Shown piece after piece: positions 23,124 to 52,631 of a stretch of DNA of 64,000 nt. Positions within the stretch are counted from its first letter, which is position 1. Every line of letters starts with the position of its first letter. Below the pieces are notes generated by a model. The model was not told the origin of the DNA. It saw only the letters and a list, made by a program, of their open reading frames with translations, and did no database searches. The DNA comes from Cyanophora paradoxa CCMP329. Its lineage: Eukaryota > Plantae > Glaucophyta. The stretch spans positions 62,001-126,000 of the forward strand of contig QPMI01000092.1 of assembly GCA_004431415.1 (NCBI GenBank), read 5' to 3'. The translations under genes were made by a program, and so were the position numbers.

Positions 23124-26100
23124 CGTGAGATCCGTCGACGTCCTGGGATTAGTGAGATCCGTCGACGTCCTGGGATTAGTGAGGTCGTTGTATGCGATCG
23201 TGTACGTGTGCTGCCGTGTGAGCGGTCCAAGGAGGCCGTGGGGGGCGAACGCGGACGACTGCACGCGCGAGGCTAGGCTCGGCGTCCCGGCCGACGGGGT
23301 CTCCGATGGAGCTACGGACTCGGCGGTGGAGCCACCACTGTCCGAGCTGGAGTCGTCGCCGTCAGAGGTTCCCGTCGTCTCGGTCCCCGTAGGACTACGA
23401 CGCGGAGGCCTGTTACTGCCAGATGGCTTGAAGACAACACCCTGGATGTGACCGAAGCGTGCCAGTCCCGTCGGCTCGTTGGTGCGCAGATCCTTGAAGT
23501 CGGTCGACCAGACGACGAAGGGTCGGACAAAGGGCTTGCGCGCAATCCCAGGGTTCCGACGAATGTACTCGTCCGTGCCCACGAGCTTGATCTTGCCGTC
23601 GAGGCGCGGGTCCCAAATGTACGCGCGCGACTCCTCTGCCTTCGTCGTAGTGATGTAGTTCATGATGTTAGTGAAGCGCGTGCGGCCTTCGTACGGGTCG
23701 ACAGGCGCGCCGTGGGGGCCGTGACCAATGTAAATGTGGGGATCTGACGAAGGAGGCTGTCGTTGTCCGGATCGCCCAGGGAGTGACGCAGGGGGAGGAC
23801 GTCGACGATCTGTACCGCCCGGTAGGCTTCGCGGCTAGTGAACGTGATGGGCCGCCTCGTCGCCGCGTCGACGGTGGCGTGATTGTAAACGAATTGTTCC
23901 AACCAACCGTGGAGTAGCGCCCGCGCCTGCGGTTCGCGACTGAAGATGGCGGCGCCGAATTCATTGTAGAATGGATCGAATGTGAAGTTGCCATATTCGG
24001 CGTGACGGAATTGCTCGTGTATGTCGGCGTATCGCTGTTCGAAATCCATAATAGCGTTGCGCACTGCGCTCGCGTTGACGTCATAGACACTGGGACGATG
24101 CGGGTGTGACGGATCGTTCGTGGGATCGAAGTCAGCGCCCCGGACTTGGGCGTTGAGTGCGTTGATGACTCCATCCGGGAGTCGGAATGCTACGGGCCAG
24201 CAGTGGTTTCGATCCATGTCGACATCTTCGCGAGCCGCCGGGGGTGTCTCGTGCTTGATCTGGACCGCCAACCAGTCGTTGGTTGCCTTGTGCAGTAGGG
24301 ATTCGAAGGCTGTGATTAAATGTGCCGGGTCGACGCGTTCGCAGTCAGGGTACTCGACCTCGTACCATTTGTCGAGTTTGGCACTGCGCGCCACTTCGCC
24401 TGAAGCCGTGAAGCGGAAGTGCAGCTCATCCTCGTGGCTACGAACGTAGTCGATGATGATGTTCCCGAGTTCCCCGGTAGGGGCTCGAGGAAGAACGACA
24501 AGGCACCGTGCAGCTTGACTGCCGCCGCCAGGTACGCTGCGATTCCGTACACCCAAGTGTGTACCGAAAGCGGGAACCCCAGGACCTGGTGGACGACGGG
24601 GGCGTTGCAGGCGCGGTGCCCGTGGGCCCGCGACGACGCAGAGACACGACGACGCCCCAGGGCCAGTGTAGTCATTGACGGACACCGGGAAGTACTTGGG
24701 TCGGGCCGCACGGGTGCGGCCCCGCCGCCTCGTTTGGGGTTTCCTCGTGCCCGCGATGATCTGCTGCCAGGTGTTCCGGTTGTTCGCGTCGAAGATAGTG
24801 ATGTGCGAGCGGTTCTGGATCGTGTTGGGGCACCGCGGCTGGGTCCGGCCGGTGCAACGTGCGTGAATCGGACGATTCGAGGGCCGCACAGGTCAGCATT
24901 GGCCGGCGTAAGAGTCATGGGCGGCGCGTTGAGGTCGTCGGGCATGGCAATCTCGTAGAAGCATCGTTCGACATCTTGACGTGAAGCGGAGTCACGGAGG
25001 TGCGCGTGGTTGTCCTCGTCGTAGATGCAGTCGAAGTAGTCGGCATACTTGTTGGCCGGGTGGAACTCGTCGGCGGCCGTGATCAGGAACGATCGGAAGG
25101 GCAGGCCCGCGCGGTTGTGCTGGCTGAGTTCGCCATGGCCGGGAGCACCGGCGCGGTACGGGTAGGTGCCGGGGCCGACGCCGTAGCGTAGGACACGACT
25201 GAGTGCTCGCGAGAAGTTCGACCAGCGTACGTGCATCTTCATGAGGAATGGGCGCATGTACGGGACGCGCCGGAGAAATGCCTCGAGACCAGAGTCGCCG
25301 AGTTGCACGTATGGCATGTGGACCTCACCTAGGACGTGCATGTACTTCTTTGTCGTGGTGGCGGGATGAACTGGGGGTGGGTCCCGAGTCGGGATTCCCT
25401 CCAGCTCTTCGACCGGCGGCGGCTCCGGGAGCTCCTCCGGTCTGTGCCCGTCCTCCACAGTGAGCTCCTCGGTCAGATCAGCCGTCTGTCCGAACGGGGC
25501 TGGGCCTCCGAGGATGTGAGCCGCGACGGCGAAGATGTGGGCGCGTGTCGCCCATGTTCCTGGATCGTTTTGCAGTACGCTGTGGCCAGGAAGTCCGTGT
25601 TCGTGAAGAGAAGCGGTGTCATGAAGATGTGATAGGAGGTATCCCGTCCCGGATCAGTATCCAGAGGTAGGAAGTCACCTCCAGCTCGCGTCTCCTCGGG
25701 GCTGTATGTGCGCATGCCGTACGGGAGTGGGGGGCGAGGATTGTGGAGACGGATTGGGTACCAGTCGTTGATCGTTTGGGCGAATAATTCCCCGTTGATG
25801 TGATTGTTGCGCCGTCCAAAACCCGCATAGAACGTGTCGCGCTCGTTCTCCGTCGAATCAGGTCGCGGTTCCCGTCGGACCATCACGCCGCTCAGATCCG
25901 GCCACACTCCGTGCTGGTAGCCAGCGCCGTCGACGACCGTGAAGCCCTTCGCCCATTCCTCGTTGAGGAAGGCCCAGAAATAGACGTCAGGAATGTCAGC
26001 GTTCTCCGAGAGTAGCACCTCCTTGAAAGGAACAGTGTGGAGTTCGCTCAAAATTCTGGAGATGATGGAGTCGACCTCCTCGGGAGTGAGCCGGGCGGCC

Positions 26101-29100
26101 TTGCGCTCCTTCTTCTGCAACTTCTCGTCATTCGGTCGCTTCTTGCGGGGCGCTTGCGCTCTGTTCCGTAGACCATAGCGCGGGCACGAAGCCCGAAGTA
26201 CGTGTTGGAGTTCCAGAAAGTGTCCTTGCTCATGTCGTCGACAAGTCCAACGAGGGAATCCCAGTCAGGAACGCGAGGCAAGATGTCGATGCCGTCCGAC
26301 GTCCACTGTGTCAGGTATCCGTACTCGTCAACGTCGCGCTCAGGGGCCGTGGGACCGGGACGGCGAGAGGGTCGGTGACGGGTACCATCGGACTGGGGAG
26401 GACAGGGAGTAGGTGATCGCGGTAGCGCGGGTAAAGCATGCAGTAGAACAGATTCAATCGATGCTCGGCGTCCAGGAGGAAGGCCCGTGTTACCGCCAAG
26501 CGCTGGGTGGTCGTAGCCTTGCTAAGTGCAGTGTCGAGTCGAGCGACGAGGCCGAAAGCAAGCTTGCTCGCAGTACGAGTGCTTGACTCCGTCTCGAGCT
26601 TGTACGCGCGACGCATGGCCTCGAGAGTCAGCTGGAGGATATGGGAGCGCCACGCAGTTTTGCACGCCAGGAGCGCCGCCTCTTCAGGGTGCACCATTAT
26701 GTAACGGTCAGAGTTGTAATAGAGCTCGACAGCTGGCTCGGGCTGCTTCGGGGTGAAGACGGGGGCGTGCAGTCGCGATTCGAGACGGATCGGTTTGCCC
26801 TTCTTGGCGAGTTGACGCTTGTGCATGAACGTAGTGATTGACATCGCGACAACGGTGGTGTCATGTAGCTCGGCGAGCCTTGCCAGCGCAGTCGTCTCCG
26901 TGACAGACGCGGCGACGACGTTCGTGAAATTTGAGGGAGGACGCCGGAGCGGTGACGGGACAGTCCGTGCCGAAGACAGTGGTGTAGGTCGGACTCGCTG
27001 ACGGGGGCGTGCGCAGACGATGGACATCGCGTGCCGCGACCACTGCTAACTGGCTGTTCAGCCGGATCTCCTCCGCGAGCTCGGCGGTCGCCCGCTGGTT
27101 CGTAGCCGGGTTCGCGTCGGATTTCGGGTTGAAACGGGACGTGTAGTAACGGCGCAGGAAGTTGCCGGGGCCCTCGACGTCGGCTGTGATGTTGACGAGG
27201 CGGAGTACGTTCTCGACTTGCTCGGTGAGCATTGACAGCAACGGCGCGTGACTCGTCGGCCATGGACGGTCGGAGCTCGGTGCTGGGTCACGAACGTCGT
27301 AGAGGTGAGCAAATCGGCTATCCCCGTAGCGGTCGCGCGTCTCGTCCCACTTGTAATGGTCGAAGTATGCAGCGATGTCCCACGCCCGCGCCAGGGCCGT
27401 CGAACGCATCGACAAGGCGATGTCGGGCGGCGGTGAACCGTGTCGAAGCGTAGACAGATAGATGTCGTCAGGTCCTGTGAGCGGGGCCGTGAACTTGACA
27501 GTTTGGACCAGTTGCCTGATTGTTGCAAGGCGCGTCGCCGTGTTCGTGATCTTGTCGAAGTTCAAGAACCGTTCATCGCTCTCCGTCATCTCCACGTCGT
27601 AGTGCAGCGTCCGGAGATTGCGGGCAAGGTTGACAGCCACCTGAAGGATGCACGGTACGACTGGAGTCTTGGACTGGTGTACAAGAGTGAACTCTGTCGG
27701 TGTCAAACCAAACAGCTCCAGCATCTCTGGCCGTCCGAGGACATCGGCGAGCGGGTCGTTCGGGTGAGGCCACGTGGTCGCCGTCTCCCCAGGCGCGAAG
27801 GGCTGAGCCCGCGCGAGGCGCATGATGACGTGGATGACGGAGCGGAATTCGGTCAGATGTTGAAGGAGGTAGTGAGCCTGGTCACTCGGGCGAGTACCCA
27901 GCAACGGTTGCCCAGTAGGCGTGTTGCTGCGGGCAGCTGCGAGGTGCATGCAGCTCGTGAGCTCGCTGGCGGCGAAGAGGGTCGGCGTCTCAGGGGTCTT
28001 GCGCCAATCCGTCGTCGTCGTTGTGACCATGAAGCGTCGCGGCGTGTCCAGGTACGCACGCAGCTGGTTGTGCACCACGGGCTTGAGGCGAAGGATCGTC
28101 CAGGCGTGGCGGTGTCCAAGGTCGGCGGCCACGTCCTTGATCTCGGGCTCCGAGTCGCTGGACGTGTCTTCGTCGGTGTCAGGAGGACTGTCACGGTCGT
28201 CGTGAGGGCTCGGCAAGGTCGGCGTGTCGACGATGATTCCCCTCGAAACGCGCGGGTCGCCCATGGGCACGTCCTCGGTCCTCTCAGTGCCCGACGAGTC
28301 GGCAGTCGTCGAGTCAGGCATCGACGCGTCGGTCGGTGCAGTGTAGTCGGGGTGAAGTGACGGGATCGGCAGCATCGGGGGTTGGGCCGGGCTCTGCGGC
28401 GGGGCCGCCGTCACAGTCGTGGCCGGGGCTGGCGGGGCGTCGGACGGGGCCAGTAGCTCAGGCGCAGGCGACGGGGCCGTCGAGACCGCAGCCACGGCCG
28501 TGGGGGACGGGACGCTGTGCGGGGTCGTCAGCGAGGTCGCCATCGCCGGTGCGATGGGCGAAGCATCTCGAGCGGCCGTCGACGAGACCGGCGTCTCGAG
28601 AGCGGGCGTCGGGGCCACCGGAGTCGTTGTCACGGGTGCAACGGGCTGGGCGTCCGGAGTCGTCGTCGCGGGTGCAACGGGCTGGGCGTCCGGAGTGTCC
28701 GTCGACGAGGCCGTCACCTCGGGCGCAGGGGGTGGGTCGTTCCGCGGGGCCGGGGGCTCCGGGGCGTCGGTCGGCGGTGTCACCGGTGCCGTTGGGCACG
28801 TCATGTCGTCGTCGTGGTAGTGAGGGTTGCCCGGGGTCTGGGGCCGGCTGGTATGAATCGGGAGCGCGCGGCCGCGGCCCCTGACCGTTCCCCCGTGCCT
28901 CGCCGATTGGCGCGGTGGAGCCTGTGCTGCCGCAGTACGGCGACGGGCGTCCATGGTGCGGCCACGAGCAATACCACCGATTGCAGCCTGCAAGTAGGGG
29001 GCTTGCGCCGCGGCCTGCACCGGGTCCTCTCCCTTGGCAGCTTCGGCGTCGAGGCGAGCCTGCAGTTCACGTGCGAGCTGTTCGTCGGCCAGCAGCTGCG

Positions 29101-30591
29101 CGTGCTTGTCGGGCGGAGTGGTCGGGGACGGCGTTCCAGGCGTGCGGCGACGAAGGATGTCTGTCAACACGTTGTGGACTTCGAGGTACCTCGCCGAAAA
29201 CTGCGTCGGGTCCCGAAGTCGCGCGTTCTCGGCGGCGAGTCGCAAGTACTCCATGTCGACGTCGTTGGTTCGGAGAGTGAGATGCGGCTTAATCTTGTCC
29301 CGCTGTCGAGCCGGCCAGTCGTGTAGAACGGCAGCGACGTAAATCGACGCCAACTTGCGGCTCACTCCCCAGCTGCAGCGACCGTGGTCTCAGGCACCGG
29401 GTAGGGCGGAAGATCAGTTGGTGTCGGGCCGAGGCGCGTGTTCGGCTCATCGACGGGGTGCATTAACGCGTGAGCATGGTAGAACGCCGGTGCCGACAAG
29501 CAGACGGGAAGCGACGCGTTCACAGTCGTTCGCGCGAGTCGGGACGTGTCCTGCCCAGAGGTGTTGACAACTCCCGGGCGAGAATGATTGGCCGAGTGCC
29601 TATCGGTCCAGTACTCGCGTCGCGAACGCCAGGCCGGAGGGTGCTGGCACGGACGGTGAAGGGGCTGACGTCGACGTTAAGGAAGATGTCAGCGACCCGA
29701 GGCCAGTCGTCGTTCCCCGTCAAAGACGTCGTTCCCTGTGGGGTGATATCCATTAACAGACCGATAATCCGCAGGAAGAGCGTCTTCATTTCCATCGTCA
29801 CTCCGTACAGAGCGTCGAGCGTGATGTCCGCCGGTGCATCGTCAGGTCGCAGAGTACTCGGGTACGGCGTGCGCTGGCGTGAGGTTGGCGACGGTACGGG
29901 GCAATTGCGGACGAACTCCATGTACGGCGGCGTTGTGCAGAGGCGGCAGTGCTCCTGAAGCTCGACGTTAGTCATTGTCACCGTGTTGCCCGTGGTCGAG
30001 TCGATGTACTCGTAGTAGCGGTGCGCAATGCTGATCACTGATGCACGGAGCCGGTGGTTCACGATGACGGGTGAGCCATCGGGGCCGATGCTGCACGTGT
30101 GGCACGGTGCAGGCATGTCGACTGGCGACAGGAAGAGAAGAATTTGCTGTCCCCCAACACTGACCATGATCTTCTCGACCGTGCGAGAGGCGAAGACGCG
30201 GTCTCCACCCTCGCGCTCATACCTCCCCGCTGCCTGGTGGCGACGAGCGATGAGCGTGATCGAGTCTTCCGCAATGTCCATCAGCATCTCGCGCAACTTC
30301 CGGTTGCGGTTGATGGGGTCATTGTCAGCCCTGTCCTCCGACGCCTTGGGCCGCAGTACGGCGGGCGCGGGTGGAGTGGGCGTGGTCGGCGGGACGATTG
30401 GCGTCTTGTCCTCAGGGGCGAGGCCCTCTGCCGTCGCGACAGAGCTGGGTCCGGCGACGGGGTCGGTCGGAGCGTTTGCCGCGACGAAACGAGCGTAGGC
30501 GTCAGCAGCCTTTGCCGAAGTCGCGTCAGGGCCTGAGGCGAACCGTAGCTCACCCTCGCGCTCGAGAATGTAGACGAGAAGTAGGATCGTA
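23124..30591 (-). CDS. Duplicated retrotransposon polyprotein segment (copy 2)
   Basis: Same sequence as 6229-13669; ORFs 29520..30605, 26861..29365, 26311..27027, 25473..26120, 24316..25458, 23660..24889. Confidence 0.75.
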
Positions 30592-30906
30592 TGTTGTACA
30601 CCCATGGACCCCGCTTACGGCCACTTCGCTTCGCTCCGGGCCGCGGTTCCATGGGTATTTAGCGTCTTCCCCTATCTAGATCGATCTGATTTTGCCGTGC
30701 GTGTACCAAAATCGTTTTACACGTTTCCCTCTGCTATTACGTGCCGGAGGGCGTGTGCGGGGGTACCTTCGGGGTTGAAAAATAAATTTCGATTTAGCTT
30801 CGAGGAGGTAGCTAACGGGAGAGCCTTTGAGGCTGATTGTGAATTCACTTTAGGGTATGAGCTTAGGCATTCTAGTGTCCACTGAGAGGCCGCACTAGAA
30901 ATTCCC
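30592..30906 (+). repeat. Left TIR (copy B)
   Basis: Same as 13670-13984; preceded by ATCGTA at 30586-30591. Confidence 0.96.
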
Positions 30907-30972
30907 TCACCCCGACCCTTTCTCAGCTTCTAGCATAGGAGCAGTGATCGCAATTTCATTTCAGAATGTTTT

Positions 30973-32353
30973 CTACTCGTCATCACTCATATAGACTTCA
31001 GGGCCCTCCTCTGGGCTGTCTGGCTCGTTCAAGTCAACCTCCATGTCCCGAGGGATGTTCGCAGAAATGTGCGCGCGAATCATTGCAGTAGCGTCTCTGA
31101 TGTCCATTCCCTGAACGTTGAATTCGACAGGTGCCTGAGCAGCCATCGCAGCTCCATTCTGCGCTTGCATGACATGCCCTCGCACTCTGATGTTGGTCAC
31201 AACTCGGCGAAAGAATGCATTCCAAACTTCCTCGGGAACGTCTGCTTGTGGAGTTAACTGCTGTGGATTCAGTTACACGTGGAGCGATCTTACCCTGCAG
31301 CGCTGGAATATCCATTATATATGTGTTCGAAACAATGACGATATCGGTTGCGTAACACGGAACCCAGCCGTATAGAATTCGAAGTCGTTTCTTGCCCTTG
31401 TTGCACAAGTCGTTGAACATAGCGATTGCATACTCGCCATAATATTCGTCGAAGCCGAGAATAGGTTGGCCATTGAACTCATCAGTAAATTTTTCGTTGT
31501 CGCGAGGATTATTGCTGATCTTCGGCTTCCAGTAGACAGTGCCAGGCGGAAACATGTTGATAGCTGTGGTTTTACCAGAACCAGGGTCGCCACAAATGAG
31601 ATGAATTCTTGAGAAATGTAGCTTGGGCCTGGCCACAGCAAGGCATACTTCTGACAGATAGGATCTGTATCTGAACGCTCTCGATCCGAACTCGTGGATA
31701 ACTTGTTCGATTGTAGCTTGATTTTCGACGATGTATTCCGTTATTACGTGCAAGTCGGTTCGCTTCCCTCGGCAACTCAAAATTTGGCCAACCTCCTTAA
31801 AGTCGAAAATATCCGAAGTGAACGCATAATCACCCCGCATCGACAGCAGGTTAGATCGGCGACCCTGATTCGACTGATAGGGCCATCGAATGTTGAGCCC
31901 TGAGTTTATAAACATTTTGGCCACACTGCTGAGGCGGTGCTGTTTGTTGAAGTACAGGAAACCCTGGGCAAGTATTAAACTGAGAATGAAGATCAACTTT
32001 GCGGGAAATCTGATAAACCGTACCTGCAGTAACATAAACCATGGATTTTCTGGATCAATGACTGCAATGAAGCAAGCATAACGGCATTTTCGCCGTGGTT
32101 CATTCGTGTTTTTATCGATGATCGGTTCGCCCGTATCTCTGTTGACAAGAACGCCAAAACGTTCCAGAAATTCTCTATCAAGTTGAGGTCCTCCCCAAAA
32201 GTGCTCTTGAGTGTCGGGATTAAAAATGATGGGCTCACGAATCTCGAAATGGAATACGTTCGACTTGTGTGTTGATTTGCAGTTCGCGGGCGGTATCACC
32301 GGCTGAGCGAAGGCCGGTTGCGGAGGTGCAGCCATAGCCATTGATCTGCGCAT
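30973..32353 (-). CDS. CRESS-virus Rep-like SF3 helicase, introns 31964-32023 and 31242-31293; 422 aa spliced
   Basis: Removing GTACGG...CCCAG (60 nt) and GTAAGA...GCAG (52 nt) gives an uninterrupted 1269-nt frame: WFMLLQ/GFLYF and PALQ/DVPEEVWNAFFRRV. Confidence 0.88.
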
Positions 32354-33481
32354 TAGCGAATTATATTTCAGCGCCAAAAAATAATTACGATCTCAGAGCA
32401 ATTTATACGAAGGGCCCCGACTGCGCTGATATTTGCCACTTTTTTGGAATTATTTTAAAAACATTTAAGAAATTATTATTTTCTGTACCCCCCTCCGCTT
32501 CGCCCCTCCCGCTCGCTTTGGCGCGCGCGCTCGGCCTGCCGGAAAAAGTGAAGAGCGCACATCTACTCGAGCAGAGAAGTGAAGTATGTTGCAAGTGAAG
32601 ACTTTTCCGGGCACTGAGGCTTCTGGATGGCCGGGACGTAGTCAGTTTGAGAGCAGCAAAGGAGTGCACACATTTTGCAGCAGGCAGGCGACGCGCGAGA
32701 CAGCTCTCTTGCCTGTGTAGGCGCTAGTGATGATGTTGCGCGGAGCTCCCTCCTGCTTCCACCGCCGAGGTGCGCTGCAAAGACGCGGGTGCGGCTTCTG
32801 GGTACAAGATCAAGGCCTTTTGCGGGTACCAGTGTTCAAAAATTTAAACGCAACTTCATGATTTTCGCCCTTCGAAATTAATAATACTTTGGCCACGGAG
32901 ATCGCTGTGAAAGTTAATAAATATCTGTGAAATGGACATAATTATACTGGAATTGCGATAATTTTCGCATCCTAAAATACCGTTACATTTCCGAAATTGT
33001 TCTAGTTTGGGTCAGCCTTGGGAGCCTCTCAAAGCGCCGGACCGCCGCCGGTTGTTATGTTTTATTAATTATGGGAAATAATTTGGTACCGGGATGCTAG
33101 CCATTGGTTAGCAAAGTATTTGTTTGGCCCAGCCGGCGGCGCCGGCTCTCTTGCGATTTGCCGACGCTAATTCTTAATTAATTAATTCATGTGCCTAGTA
33201 GGGTAGCTCGGCTAGAACTAGGTTACTAGTAGCCTGAGTGCCAGTGACTCATGATCAGTGACGGTCGCGATCGGACAGTCCGGGAGTACTAGTGCACGTT
33301 GCCCGGCGAGTCGGTGTCACAACGGTAGTCATGTCACGATGCTACTATCATGCTAGTACTACTAGGGCTACGGTACTACGGATTCTTAGTACGGAATACG
33401 TAGCCTAACATACGGTGTGGCTCGAGCCTCGGCCCTCGGAGTGCAGGCCTAGGCCAGCGCTGTGCTGATCATCATGGCATG

Positions 33482-34487
33482 CTTGCAGGTGTCTTTGGGG
33501 CCGCATTTTTTCCACCGGTTGGTCCCCACTTCGAAGACAGATAAAAAACGGTTCATGATCAATCGGTCAACTGCGCATGCCGGCCGGACTCGGGATCTGG
33601 AGTCTGCACTGACCGGACTCTGCCACTGAGTGCAGTACTAGTTCTACGGAACTTCTACCTATACAAAAAATATTTACTGCTAATTATATATAAGGCCGCT
33701 ACTAGGCCCGCTAGTACCAGGCTACTACCAGCCAACTTGCAAGTGTCTTTAGGGCCGCATTTTTTTCACCGGTTGAGCCTCCACTTCCTAGACAGATAAA
33801 AAAAACGGTTCATGGACTAGCCTACTAACTCAGTGAGAGCCTGAGACTAGTACTACTACGGTCACCGGGTACTACAAGAAACATACAGATAACTAATTAT
33901 TATAGGTACCACTACCACCGGTAACAGCCTGGCCCGCTGGCCCACTACCGCCCACAGCCTAGTCTCTCTACTAGCTATAGCTAGCTATATAGTGCACAGA
34001 GAAGGTAGGACTAATTATTATAAAAACTTAATAGCTACATAGTGCACATGCAGAGAAGGTAGGACTAATTATTATAAAATATTAATTTTTTTGTAAATCG
34101 GCGGCCAGCGTCGGCCACGGCGGCCTAGTCTCTCTACTAGCTATATATAGTGCACACTGCACAGACAAGGTAGGACTAATTGTTTATATAATAAGACAAC
34201 ATATATATATATATGTGTGTATGTAGGCTACAGTATAGTCTGTCTTCGAAGTGGAGTCAAACGGGCGAAAAAAAAGCGGCCCTAAAGACAAACAACTTGG
34301 AGACTCCTGCGCAGCTGCGCTGCGAGCCAGCGACTGTGCATGCTGTGCTACCATTAATATTGCAGCGTTAGCAACTTGAACATCTAGGCCTAGCCTCCTA
34401 GGCTATAGCTATGTACATATATATATATATATAGTCTGTCTAGGAAGTGGAGGCTCAACCGGTGAAAAAAATGCGACCCTGAAGACA
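33482..34487. repeat. Direct/inverted repeat block in non-coding region (copy B)
   Basis: Duplicate of 16558-17563. Confidence 0.85.
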
Positions 34488-34627
34488 AGCTCCTAGCAGC
34501 TGCTAGCCGCCCGATGGCCTGCTCGGAGGAGGCTGCTCCTGCCTGGTGCACGACATTCTTTCGTCGTCCTCATTCCTAGGTCTCGCCCTCTAGATCTCGT
34601 CCGACATCAGTGAAGGCAGCTGAAGGG

Positions 34628-35207
34628 ATGGCGCGCGTCAAAGCCACACCCAAGAAGAACACTGCTGGCAAGGCTCCTAGCAAGGAGGCAGTGCTTCGGG
34701 CCGAGAATGGTCGCAAAAATGGCTCAGCTGCAGCCTCTGCGACCAAGCCCGCTCGCTACCGCCCAGGTGCGACCCTTTGCGTCTCTCACGATGCGCAAAC
34801 ACTTAACTGATGTCTGTGCGCGCTCAGGGACCGTCGCTCTGCGCGAAATCCGGAAGTACCAGAAGACCACTGACCTGCTCATTCGCAAGCTGCCATTCCA
34901 GCGGCTGGTCAGGGAGATCGCTCAGCCATTGAGTAATGACGATCTGCGCTTTCAAGCAAGCTCCATTCTCGCGATTCAGTCAGCGGCGGAGGCCTTCCTG
35001 ATCAGTCTGTTTGAGGATGCGAACCTGTGTGCCATCCACGCCAAGCGTGTGACTCTGATGGTGAAGGACATTCAGCTGGCTCGTCGCATTCGCGGAGAGA
35101 TCTCGAAGATTGAGAAGTCTCAGCCTAAGCCTGCAGCTTCGACGTCTCCGGACGTAACCCCTATTACAGCTCTCGCGGCCAATTTAGGTGATCAGCTTCA
35201 GCTGTAG
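34628..35207 (+). CDS. H3: Divergent histone H3 with intron 34767-34827, copy B
   Basis: Same as copy A. Confidence 0.96.
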
Positions 35208-35305
35208 CTGTGCAAGCCTTAAAGAAAACGTGATGATAGTTATCAATCAGAGATTGTGCGCGCTGAATTTCGAAAAAGTTTTCTGATTGTATCATTAATC
35301 GAAAC

Positions 35306-38300
35306 ATGAGCTCCCGAGCCGTAAGAAACAACCTTAGAACCGAAATCAATGAGCTTGCACAGAGGCTATATGAGCGAGGCTATATTAATGGCACGTACAG
35401 GAACTCGCTAGTGCGTCCTCTAACAAACACCAGGACCCACACTGACACACTCCGATCCTCTCTAGCATCACTGCTCAGGCTGCAGGGACAGAAAGGCCTC
35501 AGCGTCCGCTGTACGGGCGAGACGTTGCCGCACATTTCGAGAGGGGGCAGGCTGCGCGAGCAGCAGCAACACAGGAGATTGATGACGTTGCGGAAGCTAT
35601 ATCAGGGCTATTCCGCGAGCAGGCGTCGGCCAACGTTAACGTAGTTCGCACCTATACTCACCACGAGTATCCAGGGCTGCTTTTCACAAAGGACGTGATA
35701 GAGATAGAGCCGACAGCTGATCCAGAGAGAGTGAAAGAATTGACGATAGCGTTTCTGAACGAGCTGCGAGTCCCAGAGAGGATTGGAGCTGCTGTTTTAA
35801 TTCGCTTTCATTTTGAGAATTTCCACATGTACCGCACGCAGCTTGCGACCATAGAGGAGGGCACAATGCAGTCACTTCTAGCAAATCTCGCGGAGAAGAT
35901 GGAGAGCTGGATGCTAGCGCAGCAGCCCTACGAGGACACTGATGTCTGGCCAGTCGTGCAGATCGAGGTGCTTATTGCAGAAAACGCAGCAGGGGCTCTG
36001 GGAAATGTACCTAAGCTGCCCTTTGGAGGGAAGGCCCTAACGATGAACAAGATCTACTGTCCGATCTCTCCAGAGGACAACTGCGTGCTTGAATGCTTTG
36101 AGCATGAGAAGCTCAATCCCGGTCGTCTGAGCCTTGAGAGAGTATACAAGCAGCTTCAGCATGTTGATTACGGTTCGATTCGCACTCAGCTGGGGCTTCC
36201 CCGGGGACTAATTGCAGTCGATGAACCTACCATACGCAAGCTGAGCCAGCACTATAGAATCGATGCAAGCATTTTCGAGTGGATCTCGGACCGCAGCGCG
36301 TCGAAGTTCAAGCTCCTATTTTCAACTGAATTTGGCTTTGAACGCCGAGCCCACCTTTGCGTGGTCGATGCTCACTGCTTTCTAATTAAAGATAAGAGAA
36401 CGTGCGAGATGCAGAAGTGCAGAGCCTGCGGAAAGATGCAGTATGATTTGGCGACTCACAAGGAAACCTGCCGCTTCTGCTATACCTGCCGCTGCGCCTA
36501 CAATCCGAAGGAGGACCATGCAAGCAAATGCGATGAAGCAGTGAGGAACAAGAGCGTTATTGAACGCAAAATCAAGCCATGCGAGCCCGAGGAAGAGTTT
36601 ACAGCCCTAAACTCAGTCATAGCGGCAGACTTTGAAACGTTTGCACCCAACCGCACGACCCACGTTCCGTACGCAGTCGATATGGACATAATTAGCAAAG
36701 GAGAGATCACGGAAACGAAATCGTTCTGCGGCCCCGAAACTCTGGAACAGTTTATGCTCTGGCTTGACGACTGGAAAGAAAAGTCGACTCTAGTATTCTT
36801 CAATGGCAGCGGCTTCGACTTGATATTTATCTATAAGTGGCTTGTCCAGAACCGCCCAGACTGCCAGGTCAAGGTGATGCGCTCATCCGGAAAGATCAAG
36901 AGCATGGAGTGGAAGACGCTGGCCGGGGGAGAGTTTAAAAGCTTCGATCCCTGCTTGCACATACAGGGCTCACTGCGGCAGGCTGGGAAGGACTACGGGT
37001 GCACCACCTTGAAAGGGGATTTTGACCACCGAAAGATAAGAGCTTGGGATGACGTTGAGATTCACAAGGAAGCCTGGAGCGAATATTTGAGAGCTGACGT
37101 TCGGTCAATGACTGAGCTGTATATTAAGTACGCTCGGACATGTTTTGATCTATTTGGGATAAATGTGAATTCGAAGCGCACCTTGACAGCATCGGCGATG
37201 GCTTTTCAGATCCACAGGCAGCTAATGAAAACGGAAGTGCTGCTACCGAAATACAAGGAGGACCAGATTTTTCGCAAAGCGATTTACGGAGGGCGATGCC
37301 TACCATTCAAGCGGAAGTTTGTCTCGAAGGTCCAGATGATTACTTGGTAGATCTGGATGTGGTCTCTCTCTATCCGACGGCTATGTACTTTAATTACTTT
37401 CCCACTGGTAAATTTAAATGCATCACCGATCAAGCGGAGCTAGAGCGATTCCGCAAGTTTATGCTGAGCAGGAAAATGGAACAGCTGTTTGTTGCAAAGA
37501 TTAGCGCTAAAATTCCTCAGGATCTTGTGCTCTCTCCCCTTCCCGCCACGAAGCCAATCTGGGATGGTCTAACTTGAAGCCTATTGAGAAAGAAATGTAC
37601 ACCTCAGTCGATATCTACCGGGCGATAGCACTGGGAGTTGAGATCACAGAGCTGCACGAGGTGTACTTGTTTGAGGGCAAGGAACGAATGTTCAAAGATT
37701 ACATTGAGAAGCTGTACTGCATGAAAGCACGCTCACGAAAGGAACCGCCCAGTATGCTACGGCGAAGATCCTCTTGAATGGGCTCTATGGAAAATTTGCT
37801 CAGCGTCCAGTAATTGAGACAACCGAGCTGGTCTCAAACTACAGACGATTCAAGGAGATACAGCGATCATCGACGATTACGGACATTGACATAGAGAATG
37901 ATACGAGAATGTACGTCACATTTGAGATCCCTGAGTATAGGCGGGATGCCTGCGTTTCGAAGCCTTGCTTTGTTGGTGCATTTATCCTCTCCTACAGCCG
38001 CGAAATCATGGATCGATTTTTGGTGAGGATGAACTCATATAAGGACGTAGAGGCAATGCCATACTACACAGATACAGATTCTATGATCGTGCACAGGAGG
38101 TTTGCTGAGCTTCTGAAGGACTGCATGAAGCAGCCATATTCAGTTGAGGGAATGTCAGAGGAGGAAGGGAATAGAATGATCTGCGAGAGCGAGCTGGGGA
38201 AACTAGATTATGACATCCAAGGGAGAATTACTGAGGCTTACTTCATTGGTCCAAAGGTTTATTGCTGCTACTTTGTGAGGTCGAATGGGGAACCAGATCT

Positions 38301-38676
38301 GCATGTGCGGGCAAAGGGAATTCCGAAGAGCTGGATAGAGGAGAACTGGCTCCCGAGTGATCCAGTGGCAAAGAAGGAATCCCTTGATAACCGAATTGCT
38401 TTGGAGGCCTTCACAAGGATGCTAGAGGAACGTTATCAGCCGCAGTGCACACTAGATTCTAAACTAGCGCGTGTTTTCAAGCCCAATGGAAAGCAACGCG
38501 AGGCTGGGATCGACTTCAGCTCTATAATTCAGATTCCATTCAGCCGAATACTCAACAAAACGGAGTATACGAAACGAAAGATTATTCCTGACGAATATTA
38601 CAGCACGGTTCCCCATGAATACGTTCGAGCAACAGGCGGCAGCCAAGAAGGCAACCTTGACTTTGTCGATCTCTGA
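35306..38676 (+). CDS. polB: Protein-primed family B DNA polymerase (~1120 aa after correcting four 1-nt deletions)
   Basis: Same motifs as copy A; ends YTKRKII...STVPHEY, matching the Polinton PolB C-terminal KR...T.P.GY pattern. Confidence 0.95.
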
Positions 38677-39832
38677 TGCTTACTATGATCCTGAGACAGG
38701 GCTCCAGTCAGCTGCACGGATAGCTAAGAAGCTGAAGATGCCGCTGGCAAGGGTGCAGGCAGTGCTCGCGAAGCTGTCCACAGCTCAGCGCTTTGCAAAA
38801 CCGGTGAAAGAGAAGCCGTACACCAGTATCACGTATAATCACCCAGAGAAGTATTATGAAGTGGATTTGATCGATGTCAGTCCCTATGCTAGAAGCAACC
38901 GCGGAGTGCACTTCATCATGAACGCTGTGGATGTTGTAACCCGGAAAGCGTACAGCATTCCAATGAAAAATAAAAGCGAGGGGACCCTGCTTTCGACACT
39001 GCGGCAGCTCATAGCAAGCTTTCCGGTGAAGCCCGATATCATTCAGACGGATCAGGAATTCAAGGCTACAGCTGCAACTATGCTAGCAGCCGAGGGGATA
39101 AAGCACAATGCTGTCGAGGCGCATCGTCCGCAGGCAAATGGAAAGGTAGAGCGCTTTAATGGTACTCTGAAGCGGATCATTGCAAGATACATGGAGGCGT
39201 ACGACACCGACCGATATATCGATAAGCTGCCATCCTTTCTGCGCAACTATAACAGCTCCGAGCATAGAGCTATTAAAACTACGCCTGATGAGGCAGCAAA
39301 GAACCCAGCACCTGTTATTGCAAGAAACGATTATCAGAGAGAGGCGTACGAGCAGCAGCACTATCTGAAAGAGGCCGAGTTCAAGGTAGGAGACTCTGTG
39401 CGCGTAAAGCTGGCGAGGAACACGTTTGATAAATCAACGAAGCCGACGTACTCAAAAGAAGTCTATCAGATTGAAGCTATAGGAGGATTTGGCCCTCTGC
39501 TCAAGTTCAAGCTTGCTGGATACGACAAGGAGGTGAGCTACCAGCAGCTGCTGAAAGTGCCAGCAGAGACAGAGCAGCGGCGGGCTGGAAGTGCTGCACA
39601 GAATGCCCTTCGCCGTCGAAAGCAGGAGCTGAATTTGATGCAAGAGAATCTGGACAAGTCAGACATCGAAAAAAATAAGAGACTTCTCCGGGTTCAAAAG
39701 CAGCTGCTTACTGCTGGAACCAAGGCGTTAAATCCAGGAGGTTCGACAGCTCGGTGGTACACGTCTTTTGAAAATGCGAAGGCCTCTTATTCTGCGCCCA
39801 GCAACACGAGGACACTTAGACCGAGACGCTGA
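38615..39832 (+). CDS. Polinton-type rve integrase, 405 aa
   Basis: DDE motifs as in copy A; consistent with 6 bp TSD. Confidence 0.96.
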   Translation: MNTFEQQAAAKKATLTLSISDAYYDPETGLQSAARIAKKLKMPLARVQAVLAKLSTAQRFAKPVKEKPYTSITYNHPEKYYEVDLIDVSPYARSNRGVHFIMNAVDVVTRKAYSIPMKNKSEGTLLSTLRQLIASFPVKPDIIQTDQEFKATAATMLAAEGIKHNAVEAHRPQANGKVERFNGTLKRIIARYMEAYDTDRYIDKLPSFLRNYNSSEHRAIKTTPDEAAKNPAPVIARNDYQREAYEQQHYLKEAEFKVGDSVRVKLARNTFDKSTKPTYSKEVYQIEAIGGFGPLLKFKLAGYDKEVSYQQLLKVPAETEQRRAGSAAQNALRRRKQELNLMQENLDKSDIEKNKRLLRVQKQLLTAGTKALNPGGSTARWYTSFENAKASYSAPSNTRTLRPRR

Positions 39833-40106
39833 TTCCAGCGGAAGCTAGGGCACTCTCAAGTACAGAGATTCGATTTATCAACCGAGTGCGATAGCGCTTG
39901 TTTGCCTCGTTGTGAGCATCTTTGTGCGAAGCCTGATATCTGCTGCTCTGCTCAATGTGTCTCTGGCGATATGCAGGGTCCTCGCTGTATTTTCTGCGGT
40001 GGTACTCTGCTTTCTTCTCCCTTCTTGCTTGAATAATCTCTGGCGTAAGAGCAATCGGTTTGCGCCCTGGTTTGCGACGCTGCGCTGACTCCATTCCCTC
40101 GTTCAT
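39816..40106 (-). CDS. Small basic bZIP-like protein
   Basis: RRKPGRKP basic motif; HNEANKRYRTRLINRISVLESAL resembles a bZIP basic region plus short zipper. Confidence 0.6.
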   Translation of the reverse strand: MNEGMESAQRRKPGRKPIALTPEIIQARREKKAEYHRRKYSEDPAYRQRHIEQSSRYQASHKDAHNEANKRYRTRLINRISVLESALASAGISVSV

Positions 40107-40180
40107 ATAAGGATCTAAATTATTTAAGCGGTATAAATCGCGCTAGAATCACGAGATTTATTTCTATCTTTTAAAGCATC

Positions 40181-40516
40181 ATGGAATCGCCGCTGCGCCT
40201 GACAATACTGAGAATTGGGAAATACAAAGGGCATACACACCTTGAAGTTGCTTTCAGAGATCCATCATATGCTCACTGGTTGTGTCGATGGGCCAGGCTA
40301 AGTGATTATGATCGCGCTCAGTTTGTCAAGGCATCCAAGCTAATCCGAGAGACAAAACCAGACATTATGTGGGGATTGTACAAAAAAGAAAGAGCTGCTA
40401 GGATTGCTCAGGCTGCAGCCCAAAATTCTACGCAGCCACAAAATGTGGAGTTATCACCAGCAGATGACCTAGACATTGACTTATCAGAGGCGGATGCGCC
40501 GCCCACCCAGGGCTGA
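40181..40516 (+). CDS. Small protein with GKYKG...DPSY..W motif (DUF3820 / ExoX C-terminal-like)
   Basis: LRIGKYKGHTHLEVAFRDPSYAHWL. Confidence 0.65.
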   Translation: MESPLRLTILRIGKYKGHTHLEVAFRDPSYAHWLCRWARLSDYDRAQFVKASKLIRETKPDIMWGLYKKERAARIAQAAAQNSTQPQNVELSPADDLDIDLSEADAPPTQG

Positions 40517-41143
40517 CTTCACTTGTGCACTCGCCGAATTGGGCTCGCTCTGATAAGGTGTAGCAGGTTTCACATCGGCAGAGTCTGGTGATTGCTCTGC
40601 CTTTACTTTTTCGTTTTTCAAATAGCGCAGATCAGGGACATCGAGTGGCCGGTGCTTGAACATTTCGCTGCGAAGCATATCACGAATTTTCGCACGTTCT
40701 TGCTTTTCTTTTACATACGATTCGATATTAGCTGATCGAGCCTCCAGGTCGCGGAATTTAATAAGTAAATCATCGAATTGACTCTTCGAAACCGTGGGCC
40801 CCTTCAGTTTCGGGCCAGAATATTTAGGCTCGCTGGCCATAGCCTTCAGCACGCGCGCAGCATCCGCATCAATATCAGACTGGAATTCTTCAACAGTTTC
40901 CATCTGGTCCTGTCGGTCATCGCTTGCAGATGCGTTTGCAGTGGCAGAGGCAATCGTTTTTGCAACCGAAGTGTTTAATTTGGGGTTGCTCGCCAGTTCA
41001 CCACTTGGATTCGCAACTGCAGCACCCTCAGTGGCACCGCTCTCAATCAGTGGCGACGCAGGCGAGCCAGCTTGTCTGGCGACGTTCGGCTCTGAAATAG
41101 TGCGACGTTCACGAAAACCCTTTCTTGGGATCCCACGGGGCAT
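40484..41143 (-). CDS. Hypothetical protein, 219 aa (basic N-terminus, coiled coil)
   Basis: ATG ORF directly downstream of ATPase on same strand, AT-rich leader. Confidence 0.7.
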   Translation of the reverse strand: MPRGIPRKGFRERRTISEPNVARQAGSPASPLIESGATEGAAVANPSGELASNPKLNTSVAKTIASATANASASDDRQDQMETVEEFQSDIDADAARVLKAMASEPKYSGPKLKGPTVSKSQFDDLLIKFRDLEARSANIESYVKEKQERAKIRDMLRSEMFKHRPLDVPDLRYLKNEKVKAEQSPDSADVKPATPYQSEPNSASAQVKSALGGRRIRL

Positions 41144-41152
41144 CTTATTTTA

Positions 41153-41974
41153 TTAAGATAAGAATTTAATACGTTTCTTTTTAGGGATAATAGGGGATTG
41201 CTCTTGTTTCGATTCTTCTTCTTTTTGTCTTAGCCCGAAGGGCAAGGAGCCCTCCTTGGGCGACGCCCATTTCGTAAAACGAAAACTCTTATCTTCAACA
41301 GCCTTATCAACATACCATGCAGTATCATACTTGGTTCCATCCAGCACAATGCACTGATAATTATGCGCCCACTTTTCAAACATGTCTATAAACTCATCCT
41401 TTGGTAGGTGGCTAAACTCTCGATAGATAGCCTCAAGCTCTGTGTGATTAGAATAGCTAAAGAAAAAACAGTAATCAGCATTAGAACGAATCGATTGACT
41501 AAGAGCTGTTAACTTTTGGGTCATTAGAATAGTTGAAATGTTAAAATGCCGCCCCTGAGTGAAAAGACGATTAACAACCTTGCTATTTCGAAGATCAACT
41601 GTTTCGGAGGCGGCAACAAGATCATCAAGCACAAGCAATATCTGCGGTGATCTCTTTTTATTTTCAATCAGACTGCGCTGAGAATCTATAATTTCTGCAA
41701 CGATTGCTGGGATAAAGTCATCATAGATCTCCTTAGTTATTGCAGCATATTCACCATTAAATTTGGTGGCTGTGAAAACAACAACCCTATCAATTTTTGG
41801 ATACAGTGATCTCAAAAGATGTTTGGTGCAGTAGTACGATTTGCCGCTATTACTTTTGGAAATAAACAGCCCTTTGAAGGGAACTTTGATATCGCCTGGT
41901 TGAAACTGAGATAAGTCATCAGTGTTTTCGCTATCCATCAAAAATAAAGTCGCAGAATTGAGAGCTGATGCCAT
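41153..41974 (-). CDS. A32-like genome packaging ATPase
   Basis: Walker A SKSNSGKS, Walker B LLVLDD, A32 motif QGRHFNISTILMTQ, IRSNADY. Confidence 0.95.
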   Translation of the reverse strand: MASALNSATLFLMDSENTDDLSQFQPGDIKVPFKGLFISKSNSGKSYYCTKHLLRSLYPKIDRVVVFTATKFNGEYAAITKEIYDDFIPAIVAEIIDSQRSLIENKKRSPQILLVLDDLVAASETVDLRNSKVVNRLFTQGRHFNISTILMTQKLTALSQSIRSNADYCFFFSYSNHTELEAIYREFSHLPKDEFIDMFEKWAHNYQCIVLDGTKYDTAWYVDKAVEDKSFRFTKWASPKEGSLPFGLRQKEEESKQEQSPIIPKKKRIKFLS

Positions 41975-43363
41975 TTAAAGGTTGACCTTGCGAAGGCCCG
42001 CAGCATCAACAATTAGGACAGTGTGCAGAAGAGCTCGGACCTGAACGTAGATCTTGTTGGCTGCATCATAAGCGGCAGGGTTCATGATATTAAGGAAGCA
42101 GCTGCTGCTGTTGGTGAGATCCACGAAACCTGTTTGAGCTGCATTGCGGATAGCCTTCTGGCCGTCTACACAGAATGGCAGGCCAGTCAAGACATACCGA
42201 TTGAGAGGAGCATCCAGATTAGAGCATTTGAAGACATCAGCGAGAAGCTCAGCACCTTGCAGCAGGGGCACAGGCTCGTTAGAATAAAGTCGCTGGCCAT
42301 TCAATTCGCAGGAAATAGTTATGTCACGAGCATTGGCCTCGGTTTTGAGGACACTGTGTTTTCCATCAGTTTGGTTCACATTTGTTTGCTTGCGAATGCT
42401 AACGAAAAGGCCATAGCAGAGTCCACTGATTTGAGACAGATTAATCCGGGTGGGCGCACCAGCACCTGCATAGGTAATTGAGTCAGCATCAACCCAACCA
42501 ACTTCAGTTGCAGGAATGGCAATCCCCGAAGATTTGACTTTCTCAATCACCTGGGCAAAAGTGGCCTCATCAACGTTGATGCAGTGAGCTATAATCTTCG
42601 GATTCGAAAGCTCGGGTTTTTCAGGAGTGACAGTGAGGACATTGGGAGTTATATTCTGGCCAATGTTTGCAGGGGATGCAGCAGCAGCTCCTACGCTCCC
42701 AAGGCCATCGTCTTTAGAGGCATCACCGTTTGCGGCATATTCTGCTACAAACCTTCCACCATAGCTGGTTTCAACGAAGCCCTGGGCGCGGTCACGGAAC
42801 CAAACCTCCACAGACACCTCGCCGGAGAGCGCACCAATTGGAAGCACTGAGCCCTCCCAGGGGCAGGGGATCTTTACACTGAAAATACCTCCAGCGCGAT
42901 TGCTCCCCTGAGGTGGGGTTCCATGGAGCCAGCCACCAGACCGGTATTTCTTTTTAAGCTGAGCATCGTCATTGAAAATCAGAGCGCTGTGAACAAGCCA
43001 GTCCTCAGGGACGATGTAGCTGTAGGAAGCATATTTGATTTCAATTCGCTTTACAAGAGCACCAACAGACCGCAGATAACCAGTGCGAACCAGGTCAGTG
43101 TCACCAGTAAAAGCGGTCAGCTCGGGCAGGGTAAACTGGAGTTCAAGCCCCTGAAGGAAATTGTAACGGGGTAGGAAATAAGTAACCCTCTTTCCGAAGC
43201 AGTCTCCATAGTCATTGCTAGGGTTGACAACGACACGCACAGGCTTTGTTTGGCTGGTTAGACCTAACATAAGCTCGTTATTCATAAAGAAATCCTTAGC
43301 TTCCTGCGGAGTTGTGAGCAGCTCCTTTAGACCAAGACGTTGCAAGTTCTGGGTAACATCCAT
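41975..43363 (-). CDS. Major capsid protein (double jelly roll), NCLDV-like signatures
   Basis: FGKRVTYFLPR..FLQGLELQFTLPEL, GALVKRIEIKY, DWL, VKIPCPW...LPIGAL..EVSVEVWFR; 462 aa; adjacent to ATPase. Confidence 0.85.
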   Translation of the reverse strand: MDVTQNLQRLGLKELLTTPQEAKDFFMNNELMLGLTSQTKPVRVVVNPSNDYGDCFGKRVTYFLPRYNFLQGLELQFTLPELTAFTGDTDLVRTGYLRSVGALVKRIEIKYASYSYIVPEDWLVHSALIFNDDAQLKKKYRSGGWLHGTPPQGSNRAGGIFSVKIPCPWEGSVLPIGALSGEVSVEVWFRDRAQGFVETSYGGRFVAEYAANGDASKDDGLGSVGAAAASPANIGQNITPNVLTVTPEKPELSNPKIIAHCINVDEATFAQVIEKVKSSGIAIPATEVGWVDADSITYAGAGAPTRINLSQISGLCYGLFVSIRKQTNVNQTDGKHSVLKTEANARDITISCELNGQRLYSNEPVPLLQGAELLADVFKCSNLDAPLNRYVLTGLPFCVDGQKAIRNAAQTGFVDLTNSSSCFLNIMNPAAYDAANKIYVQVRALLHTVLIVDAAGLRKVNL

Positions 43364-43405
43364 TGAAGTGTTTATAATTCAAACGGAAGAAAATAATTCG
43401 GGGAC

Positions 43406-44362
43406 TCAGTTTGACGAATTGATCCAAGGATATGTCTTTGACCTTTTCTGGAGCTGAAGCTTGGCGAGCTCGTAGACAACATCACCATTTGGTTCATCTG
43501 GGCCATAACGAATTTCGAGTATAAATGAGACAGGACCTCCATTTAAATCAGCAATTCGCTGCATAAAATCGTAAATCTCAATAGTCACAGAGTAGAGGTC
43601 CAGCTTTGAATAAATATACTTGTACAAAGGATGTGCTTCAGTTGAATCATAGTATGCTATCTCGCCTGGACGAAGGACACTTGGAATGCTCAGCTTCGAG
43701 AAGAAGCCAGGTATTGACGTGTTCGGCATACTGACAAGGTCACCAATTTCAGGAATTCGTAGGAGCACATGATCATCAGGAGTGACATCAGGCTCATAAG
43801 CGCCTGCTATATATTCAGTATTTATAGATAATGTCTTTGACCGAATTGGTAGAATTGATCTCAGCCCTAGAAGCTTTGCAGTTCGCTGAGCCCTTGCAAC
43901 GGCCTGGTAGTTTCTGACTTCCCGCCCACCCTGGTTCGTTGGCAACATCAGAGCAATAAAGAACTCGAAGTTAGCTGTGAACCCTATTAATTTGATCGCT
44001 GAATTATACGTGCACGTGATACCTGTTCCCGTCAACCTTTCGTTTATCTCTGTCACAAGCGAGGTGACGTCGTAATTTCCAGGTGGAATTGCAATGTTAT
44101 TCCACGCTCCAAATCCGGCCTGAGGTGGGTCGGGTCCTTCATTAGTGGGATCATATTTGCACCAATATATATAGGTGTTAAAGACTAAATCCTCTGCCGG
44201 ATCGAGTACATCAATTGTGCTCATAGTGTTGGGGATCTCAGCTGATACCAAGCGCACGGCTTTCACATCCTGATAAACTTTAGGCAGTCTTACTTTAAAT
44301 TTCGAGGTGGATGTCAGCTCCTCCGCTTGGTGACTTGCAATGCAGACGTAGTCCGTAGGCAT
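43406..44362 (-). CDS. Minor capsid / penton-like protein 1
   Basis: FKVRLPKVYQDVKAVRLVSAEIPNT, IPPGNY...LVTEIN, C-terminal DLNGGPVSFILEI. Confidence 0.8.
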   Translation of the reverse strand: MPTDYVCIASHQAEELTSTSKFKVRLPKVYQDVKAVRLVSAEIPNTMSTIDVLDPAEDLVFNTYIYWCKYDPTNEGPDPPQAGFGAWNNIAIPPGNYDVTSLVTEINERLTGTGITCTYNSAIKLIGFTANFEFFIALMLPTNQGGREVRNYQAVARAQRTAKLLGLRSILPIRSKTLSINTEYIAGAYEPDVTPDDHVLLRIPEIGDLVSMPNTSIPGFFSKLSIPSVLRPGEIAYYDSTEAHPLYKYIYSKLDLYSVTIEIYDFMQRIADLNGGPVSFILEIRYGPDEPNGDVVYELAKLQLQKRSKTYPWINSSN

Positions 44363-44389
44363 CTTTTTTATATCAGTTAGAGAATAAAA

Positions 44390-46753: not shown

Positions 46754-46777
46754 TTTTAAAAGGGGGCTTATATAAAA

Positions 46778-52600: not shown

Positions 52601-52631
52601 CTGCCGTAATAAAAATGTCACAGTATAGTAA

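Follow-up and report, generated by a model that had tools for sequence, protein, structure and literature searches.

A complete Polinton-like element in the genome of Cyanophora paradoxa carries a histone H3 gene of its own, with a predicted intron, a near-canonical histone fold and an N-terminal tail lacking both ARKS sites. It lies within the 64,000-nucleotide stretch of DNA analysed here (the window). We put a probability of about 45% on the reading that this H3 is an accessory gene whose product is laid on the element's own DNA, where it would blunt silencing in cis. Judged by its altered residues, an anti-silencing role of the element H3 is plausible.

A complete Polinton-like element

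The element spans 25,375 bp (30592..55966) and has a GC content of about 0.39-0.52 versus about 0.60-0.70 in the surrounding host DNA. It is bounded by terminal inverted repeats (TIRs) of 300 bp, the left one (30592..30891, plus strand) beginning with TG and the right one (55667..55966, minus strand) being 100% complementary to it, and by the target-site duplication (TSD) ATCGTA (30586..30591 and 55967..55972, both plus strand). The empty insertion site is present in short-read contigs of X1 and X2, two of the three DNA or unlabelled runs, so the insertion is real. With perfect TIRs, a TSD and an existing empty site, the element looks recent and intact. A first-pass annotation, made from the sequence alone, had proposed a 25-kb integrating virus with an H3 inside its TIRs, and both statements hold. 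GC-rich repeats surround the element, upstream of ORFs for a Ty3/Gypsy-like protease, RT and RNase H. A long run of same-strand ORFs upstream of the Ty3/Gypsy protease, RT and RNase H (627-13367, minus strand) lies in a multi-copy repeat and is possibly an LTR element of unusual size that carries additional genes. A GC-rich 141-bp satellite of about 10.5 copies lies at 61269-62733. No tRNA was found in the window and no Rfam match within the element.

From the left TIR, the gene order begins with a Rep of circovirus/CRESS type with an SF3 helicase (31034..32353, minus strand; structure match 7lar), a non-coding, CTAG-rich spacer of 2.3 kb (32354..34627) and the H3 gene, followed by pPolB (35306..38676, plus strand; PF03175, E 9e-57) and a retrovirus-type RVE integrase (38615..39832, plus strand; rve_3, E 1e-7). 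Then come an A32-type packaging ATPase (41153..41974, minus strand; Pox_A32, PF04665, E 1e-9, above the cut-off) and a double-jelly-roll major capsid protein (41975..43363, minus strand), whose modelled structure (pLDDT 57) matched the PBCV-1 capsid with E 9e-14 and a TM score of 0.51, an earlier model at pLDDT 37 having been uninformative. Capsid_N was found on 12-30% of the members of capsid-related Atlas clusters. The next ORF likely encodes a minor capsid (penton) protein (43406..44362, minus strand), a lead that comes from related cluster members carrying DUF5901 (13-17%) or V18-19 (26%), the candidate itself being without a Pfam match. A possible second minor capsid protein (44390..45277, plus strand) has no family match and was judged by eye. 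Further genes encode a patatin-like lipase (45269..46753, minus strand; E 1e-25), a fibre-like protein of 1940 amino acids with a C-terminal S74 chaperone domain (46778..52600, plus strand; E 3e-16) and an HNH-AP2 protein (55065..55628, minus strand). The fibre gene contains 36-nt and 57-nt tandem repeats and internal duplications, and the lipase beside it bears a C-terminal extension. The capsid is 64% identical to a C. paradoxa gene model, its sole close relative, and its lineage is very divergent, a search of 1.84 billion representatives having given only six relatives at E 0.001. Capsid peptides retrieved no environmental sister elements from metagenome or viral contigs.

The element was filed as Polinton-like and not as a strict Maverick because no protease family, such as an adenovirus-like cysteine protease, was found in the scanned element ORFs (at least 75 aa, nested antisense ORFs set aside) and because its termini read TG...CA. 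Maverick/Polinton elements sensu stricto have 5'-AG...CT-3' termini. The strict-Maverick features pPolB and RVE integrase are both present. Parts of the literature already place Polinton-like elements in C. paradoxa (PMC10120064; PMC12220804), and the endogenous protist Polinton-like viruses described there (Bellas et al. 2023, PMC10120064; PMC12220804) resemble the present element in size (15-30 kb), TIRs, pPolB, rve integrase, ATPase, major capsid protein, GC contrast, Ty3/Gypsy neighbours and artefactual frame breaks.

An apparent tandem duplication of 16.9 kb (unit 1, 6230..23123; unit 2, 23152..40046; plus strand) places a second, identical H3 copy (17704..18283, plus strand) within a truncated left part of the element. 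Between the units there are 35 single-base indels but no substitutions, and the junction (23125-23183) contains a repeated 27-bp unit; the duplication may be real or an assembly artefact. True decay of pPolB was considered and rejected, as its frame breaks are not the same in both copies and are missing from short-read contigs. The indels that break it resemble errors of the consensus, which passages of PMC10120064 describe as a known artefact in such elements.

Gene structure and residues of the element H3

The H3 gene starts with an ATG at 34628 and consists of a 139-nt exon 1 encoding the rewritten N-terminal tail (34628..34766), a predicted 61-nt GT-AG intron (34767..34827) and a 380-nt exon 2 encoding the histone fold and a C-terminal extension of 35 residues beyond the conserved RGE (34828..35207), all on the plus strand. 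Splicing yields 172 amino acids with no internal stop; the unspliced frame runs into a stop within the intron. Two GT/GC-AG pairs preserve the frame and the RYRPGT motif, and the 61-nt pair alone also preserves the alphaN helix. Exon 2 matches PF00125 with E 1e-36, the stop codon lies 98 nt upstream of the pPolB ATG, and short-read contigs match 34446-35217 letter for letter in all three DNA or unlabelled runs. The intron call is supported by homology, since DNA contigs of a P0058-type paralog have intron-like sequence at the same site and RNA contigs of that type, present in three of three RNA-type runs (X21, X22, X24) from two studies, run straight across it. No contig of the element H3 itself was found in these RNA-type runs, nor was any RNA data set listed as containing 34400-36400, absences that are uninformative either way.

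Compared with the canonical-type H3 P0054, the protein is identical at 17 of 39 tail positions and 78 of 96 fold positions (81%). K4, K9, K14 and K18 are kept, with the lysine contexts PKKN and GRKN; S10N, S28N and K36T are lost sites, and K79 is gone, within a loop 1 longer by one residue. Additional changes are T3V, A7P, R8K, R17S, K23R, E94S, Y99F, T107A and P121V, so that all three mitotic phosphorylation sites (T3, S10, S28) are lost. K37, K56, C110 and H113 are retained, the latter two being residues of the four-helix bundle. The tail has 10 K+R and 2 acidic residues, compared with 12 and 0 in the canonical form. The first-pass annotation had read the intron (as a prediction), the position directly upstream of PolB, the near-canonical fold, every kept and lost residue that it named and an extension of some 35 residues correctly. 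It missed the second identical H3, the Rep gene, two sister H3 gene models and the apparent minority status, by contig depth, of the H3 within the element family.

By class the protein is a non-centromeric H3, with alphaN and C110/H113 intact in its fold. CenH3 proteins lose Q68 and F84 and are only about 50-60% like H3 in the fold. A CenH3 identity was rejected, as Q68 and F84 are kept and the fold is 81% identical to canonical-type H3; its only CenH3-like traits are T107A and the longer loop 1. No H4, H2A or H2B was found among the scanned element ORFs, and this lone H3 with a host-like fold therefore shows the "pickpocket"-type pattern. The GC3 of the gene (0.64) lies between that of element genes (0.30-0.62) and flanking host ORFs (0.71-0.77), which indicates that the gene was not freshly copied from host-like DNA. 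Its leader is GC-rich and host-like, the capsid-gene leaders being AT-rich. The last 14 codons (35164-35207) are common to a sister contig that diverges upstream.

Relatives of the element H3

Five H3 variants among the 120 H3 matches listed are C. paradoxa gene models, and the three with full tails all lack both ARKS and R8K9. A phylogeny of H3 had been proposed in the first-pass annotation as a check. In a tail-plus-fold tree (62 rows, 136 columns; P0045 and P0065 omitted as partial or shifted models), the element H3 grouped with the gene models P0034 and P0035 at 98/97, a rough support value because the bootstrap was unsettled (0.796), and P0058 joined this clade in just 13% of bootstrap trees. 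The fold-only tree (106 rows) left 82 of 103 inner branches open and placed P0034 elsewhere. The motifs GEISK and AIQ[ST]AAEA are shared by the element H3 and P0034/P0035 and occur in none of 210 other distinct H3s; ARVK.TPKK is shared with P0045/P0058 and is likewise found in 0 of 210, and the TLM of the element H3 recurs in one of 210. Contigs in the runs that hold the element carry motifs of the Cyanophora H3 variants. P0034 and P0035 keep neither K14 nor K18, and P0034 also lacks K9, so no conserved code underlies the lysines kept in the element H3.

In the fold, the closest database match agrees at 77 of 91 residues, and other H3 contigs reach about 84-86% identity over at most 101 nt. 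Of the proposed capture of a host H3, the eukaryotic derivation and intactness stand, but the gene was not freshly copied from an ordinary host H3, the nearest relatives being the two divergent, ARKS-less Cyanophora models. Six of seven and four of four listed fold differences from two paralogous contigs are synonymous, a tally that covers 7 of 16 and 4 of 12 differences. The histone fold appears to be under purifying selection, and this constraint may date from before capture, when the genes were still the host's own.

Letter for letter, the loop-1 sequence of P0034/35 fits a second DNA contig (read from a two-contig consensus), and the predicted stop of P0034/35 falls about 7 nt before 35164, where the sister contig joins the element sequence. 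This hints that P0034/35 also precede pPolB. The depths, though, do not match cleanly (X2, 160 versus about 257, derived from bins; X6, 8.65 versus 27.8). A search with pPolB gave two distant matches only. The multi-copy P0058-type paralog sits on a deep 5.7-kb DNA contig; this type (P0058/P0045/P0065) is ARKS-less, comprises five near-identical gene models and is seen on spliced 2.9-kb RNA contigs, and it may ride another, active mobile element. Other strongly divergent host H3-like transcripts, one of them switching sequence right after YQK, occur in the RNA contigs of X22 and X24 and possibly include the host CenH3.

Distribution among sister elements and the Rep partner gene

From the TIR through H3, the assembled contigs are exact and of low depth (X1, 82-94; X2, 128-139; X6, 9-20), compared with deeper pPolB/integrase contigs (X1, 358-448; X2, 554-636; X6, 48-82). 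By contig depth, the H3-Rep arm would be present in between roughly a quarter and two fifths of the element family, a rough guide in that contig depth is not copy number, GC bias is uncontrolled and the comparison is blind to sister arms whose H3s are less than 80% identical. The first-pass annotation had counted absence from sister elements, together with an identical ordinary host gene, against its own idea; most family copies do seem to be without H3 by contig depth, which is half of that combination. The depth of a host H3-like contig in X2 (59) suggests that the H3-Rep arm has maybe about two copies, and the two copies in the window could be the whole H3-bearing set. The divergence of sisters from the window is about 9% at the pPolB 5' end and about 0.3% in the integrase region. 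The H3-Rep arm is thus probably a minority, recombinant left-arm module, and the H3 does not belong to the core genes of the family. A different sister left arm, considered from a loose end at 30906, was rejected since that end proved to be the element's own right arm.

Rep is arranged head to head with H3 and matches 7lar and 8xms, which we take to be porcine circovirus 2 entries, with E about 4e-9 (3.7e-9) and 3e-8. It has a predicted in-frame GT-AG intron of 60 nt (32023-31964), past which motif II reads LLQGF, the HUH histidine apparently being replaced. An element that encodes pPolB thus also holds a Rep whose gene has a predicted spliceosomal intron and whose HUH histidine is seemingly lost. 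The Rep-H3 spacer contains nested inverted-repeat pairs (33490-33541/34239-34290 and 33744-33796/34435-34487). A CRESS origin in the spacer was rejected, as neither a perfect hairpin (stem of at least 8 nt, loop of 5-15 nt) nor NANTATTAC was found there.

Comparison with other viral and mobile H3s

ARKS is wholly absent from 15 of 40 IMG/VR viral H3s and 3 of 52 metagenome H3s (distinct full tails), and from 17 of 41 database matches picked by likeness to the element H3; it is kept at K27 in only eight of the 40 viral tails. Since the loss of ARKS is common in viral H3s, tail rewriting by itself is no proof of a decoy design, as had been suggested in the first-pass annotation. It follows a viral trend and fits relaxed constraint equally well.

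Ten element-type proteins searched against H3 loci (E 1e-3) matched none of 81 IMG/VR and none of 80 metagenome loci (15 of at least 8 kb). After nine repeats of the same contigs were excluded, 72 of the 81 IMG/VR loci yielded 41 H3-bearing viral records, which resemble giant-virus material and none of which is a Polinton-like virus. PF03175 occurs in five of the 41, all giant-virus genomes or bins of at least 181 kb, and in none of the 20 records under 60 kb. A histone gene in a Polinton-like virus was likewise not found in the literature checked, which includes portions of PMC10120064, PMC12220804, PMC12721341, PMC8502044, PMC12859917, PMC9145170 and 10.64898/2026.06.19.733378; an annotation-table entry could exist. 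The text and supplements examined of PMC10120064 contain no match to "histone", the mentions seen in PMC12220804 are solely a 3'UTR stem-loop match and a SET fusion, and "polinton" occurs 0 times in the viral-histone review PMC9145170. To judge from these sources, the Polinton-like carrier appears to be new, while lone viral H3s (PMC9145170) and hAT-borne H3s (PMC6710886) have been published. Hence the view of the first-pass annotation that viral histones are known mainly from large viruses omits the H3 of the small xenomavirus (in PMC9145170) and the hAT-borne H3s (in PMC6710886).

The sections of Talbert et al. 2022 (PMC9145170) on single viral H3s describe those of Dishui Lake phycodnavirus 1, sylvanvirus, MAGs and Manila clam xenomavirus, with folds 73-87% like host H3 and K79 often lost. 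Like them, the element H3 is a lone H3 with an altered tail and a presumed host H4, and its alpha2 site, SSIL, is near their SAIL/TAIL. The xenomavirus is small and Rep-related (section 9 of PMC9145170), and the element also carries a Rep. Unlike them, the element H3 has a 25-kb integrating Polinton-like carrier, an intron, a C-terminal extension and sister genes in the host gene set. The H3s of Dothideomycete hAT elements (Dhillon et al. 2019, PMC6710886) also lie within TIR-bounded mobile elements, which, as far as that account goes, move by cut-and-paste, reach tens or hundreds of copies and are mostly killed by RIP; in contrast, the present element encodes a capsid and its H3 is low-copy, intact and tail-rewritten. 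The Cotesia bracovirus H4 likewise derives from a host core histone, has an altered tail and belongs to an integrated viral element, but it is an H4 with an added N-terminal tail that acts on a second host (in the bracovirus part of PMC9145170), the role of the element H3 being putative. Polinton-like viruses are intron-free in the passages seen of Bellas et al. (PMC10120064), whereas this element has two genes with predicted introns.

The P0050 cluster (P0124-P0126) and P0091 are H3s without introns that bear rewritten tails or C-terminal extensions and lie on metagenome contigs of 13-23 kb, two of which measure 20,790 and 20,791 bp. These contigs are possible complete small elements. No locus identical to P0050 was found.

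How the H3 may act in cis

The intron and GC-rich leader suggest that the gene would be transcribed by host Pol II and spliced in the host nucleus, splicing being supported by the paralog. With fold and tetramer residues intact and no partner histone found in the element, the protein would need host H4, with which it could enter nucleosomes; it would then be deposited on the element's own DNA and not on host genes. Silencing enzymes and readers depend on R8/R26 before the lysine, on S10 and on the reader pocket for ARK(me)S, and in other eukaryotes K9-context, K23 ubiquitin and K36 methyl signals guide DNMT1/DNMT3. By analogy, nucleosomes with the element H3 would be poor silencing substrates. 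A tail without both ARKS sites, S10, S28 and K36 would likely blunt silencing, with K4, K14 and K18 staying in place.

In C. paradoxa, repeats and virus-derived genes are CpG-methylated and silent according to the part of PMC12344493 on this alga, which makes loss of DNMT1/DNMT3 guidance through the K9 context, K23 and K36 a likelier main route than escape from PRC2. PRC2 core genes were not found in an older assembly and H3K27me3 was inconclusive (in the portion of PMC5405695 on C. paradoxa), so that of the K9/K27 basis for silencing invoked in the first-pass annotation the K27 half is weakened.

Alternatives to the cis reading

Captured once into one left arm, the gene might be a passenger, a fast-evolving host H3 variant that is undecayed and useless to the virus, an account that is possible but that we do not favour. 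Apparently only one insertion, with its tandem duplicate, carries the H3, its intron and host-like leader set it apart from the capsid genes, and several divergent Cyanophora H3 gene models exist, a multi-copy one being present in RNA contigs. The 14 codons shared with the sister contig would fit an extension that arose as the frame read on into older element DNA, and hAT-captured H3s are often dead passengers in what PMC6710886 reports of them. However, the H3 contigs and fold matches include no near-identical host donor, the frame is intact despite that distance, and the rise in sister divergence from about 0.3% to about 9% toward the pPolB 5' end suggests an older, diverged element, not a recent capture from the host, as the source of the arm. 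It is rather improbable that Rep, spacer and H3 form a small element of their own, which descends from a Rep-encoding circular virus, entered the left arm by recombination and is what the H3 serves. Rep and H3 do stand head to head around nested inverted repeats, both with predicted introns of about 60 nt, the low-depth stretch coincides exactly with this block, and xenomaviruses combine a circovirus-like replicase lineage with a lone H3 (in parts of PMC9145170 and 10.1101/341131). The missing origin signals and the seemingly replaced HUH histidine nevertheless speak against it, as do the absence of a capsid gene and of any noted flanking target-site repeat, and the block runs uninterrupted from TIR to pPolB leader, like an element arm.

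A decoy or effector acting in trans, by which the H3 would enter host nucleosomes genome-wide and dilute silencing or mitotic marks, is very improbable. Decoys and inhibitors usually retain the enzyme-binding context, as K27M does, and in the element H3 these contexts are destroyed; a latent integrated element would also gain little from damage to its host. For it speak the loss of T3, S10 and S28 together, the view that lone viral histones work with host histones, and the bracovirus H4, which enters host nucleosomes and alters host expression (both in the respective sections of PMC9145170). Hardly credible, finally, is a virion core protein that condenses the packaged genome, as was suggested in the first-pass annotation: marseillevirus histones do package viral DNA (in the section of PMC9145170 on them), but no H4, H2A or H2B accompanies the H3 among the scanned element ORFs, most sisters with near-identical pPolB and integrase appear to do without it, and its tail is less basic than the canonical one.

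Implications

The cis anti-silencing reading offers a concrete candidate mechanism, an own H3 without silencing sites, for the exit of Polinton-like viruses from the silenced integrated state, an open question for viruses that are abundant in protist genomes, and it does so in a culturable alga with a published methylome. Near-identical sister elements, seemingly without H3, would be natural controls. The finding extends viral histones to a phylum where literature and record searches showed none, and it puts predicted spliceosomal introns in a group whose genes are as a rule annotated without introns, an annotation habit by which such spliced genes may have been missed. Even if the H3 is a passenger, it clearly documents host-gene capture and the swapping of arms among these elements.

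A wider reading, which we regard as doubtful, is that glaucophyte Polinton-like viruses keep a diversifying lineage of spliced H3s on swappable arms beside pPolB, loaded as silencing-proof nucleosomes, a lineage that would comprise the element H3, P0034, P0035 and perhaps the expressed multi-copy P0058 type. If true, Preplasmiviricota would have in this element-borne lineage their first anti-silencing system based on histones, and mobile elements would have converged once more on an ARKS-less H3.
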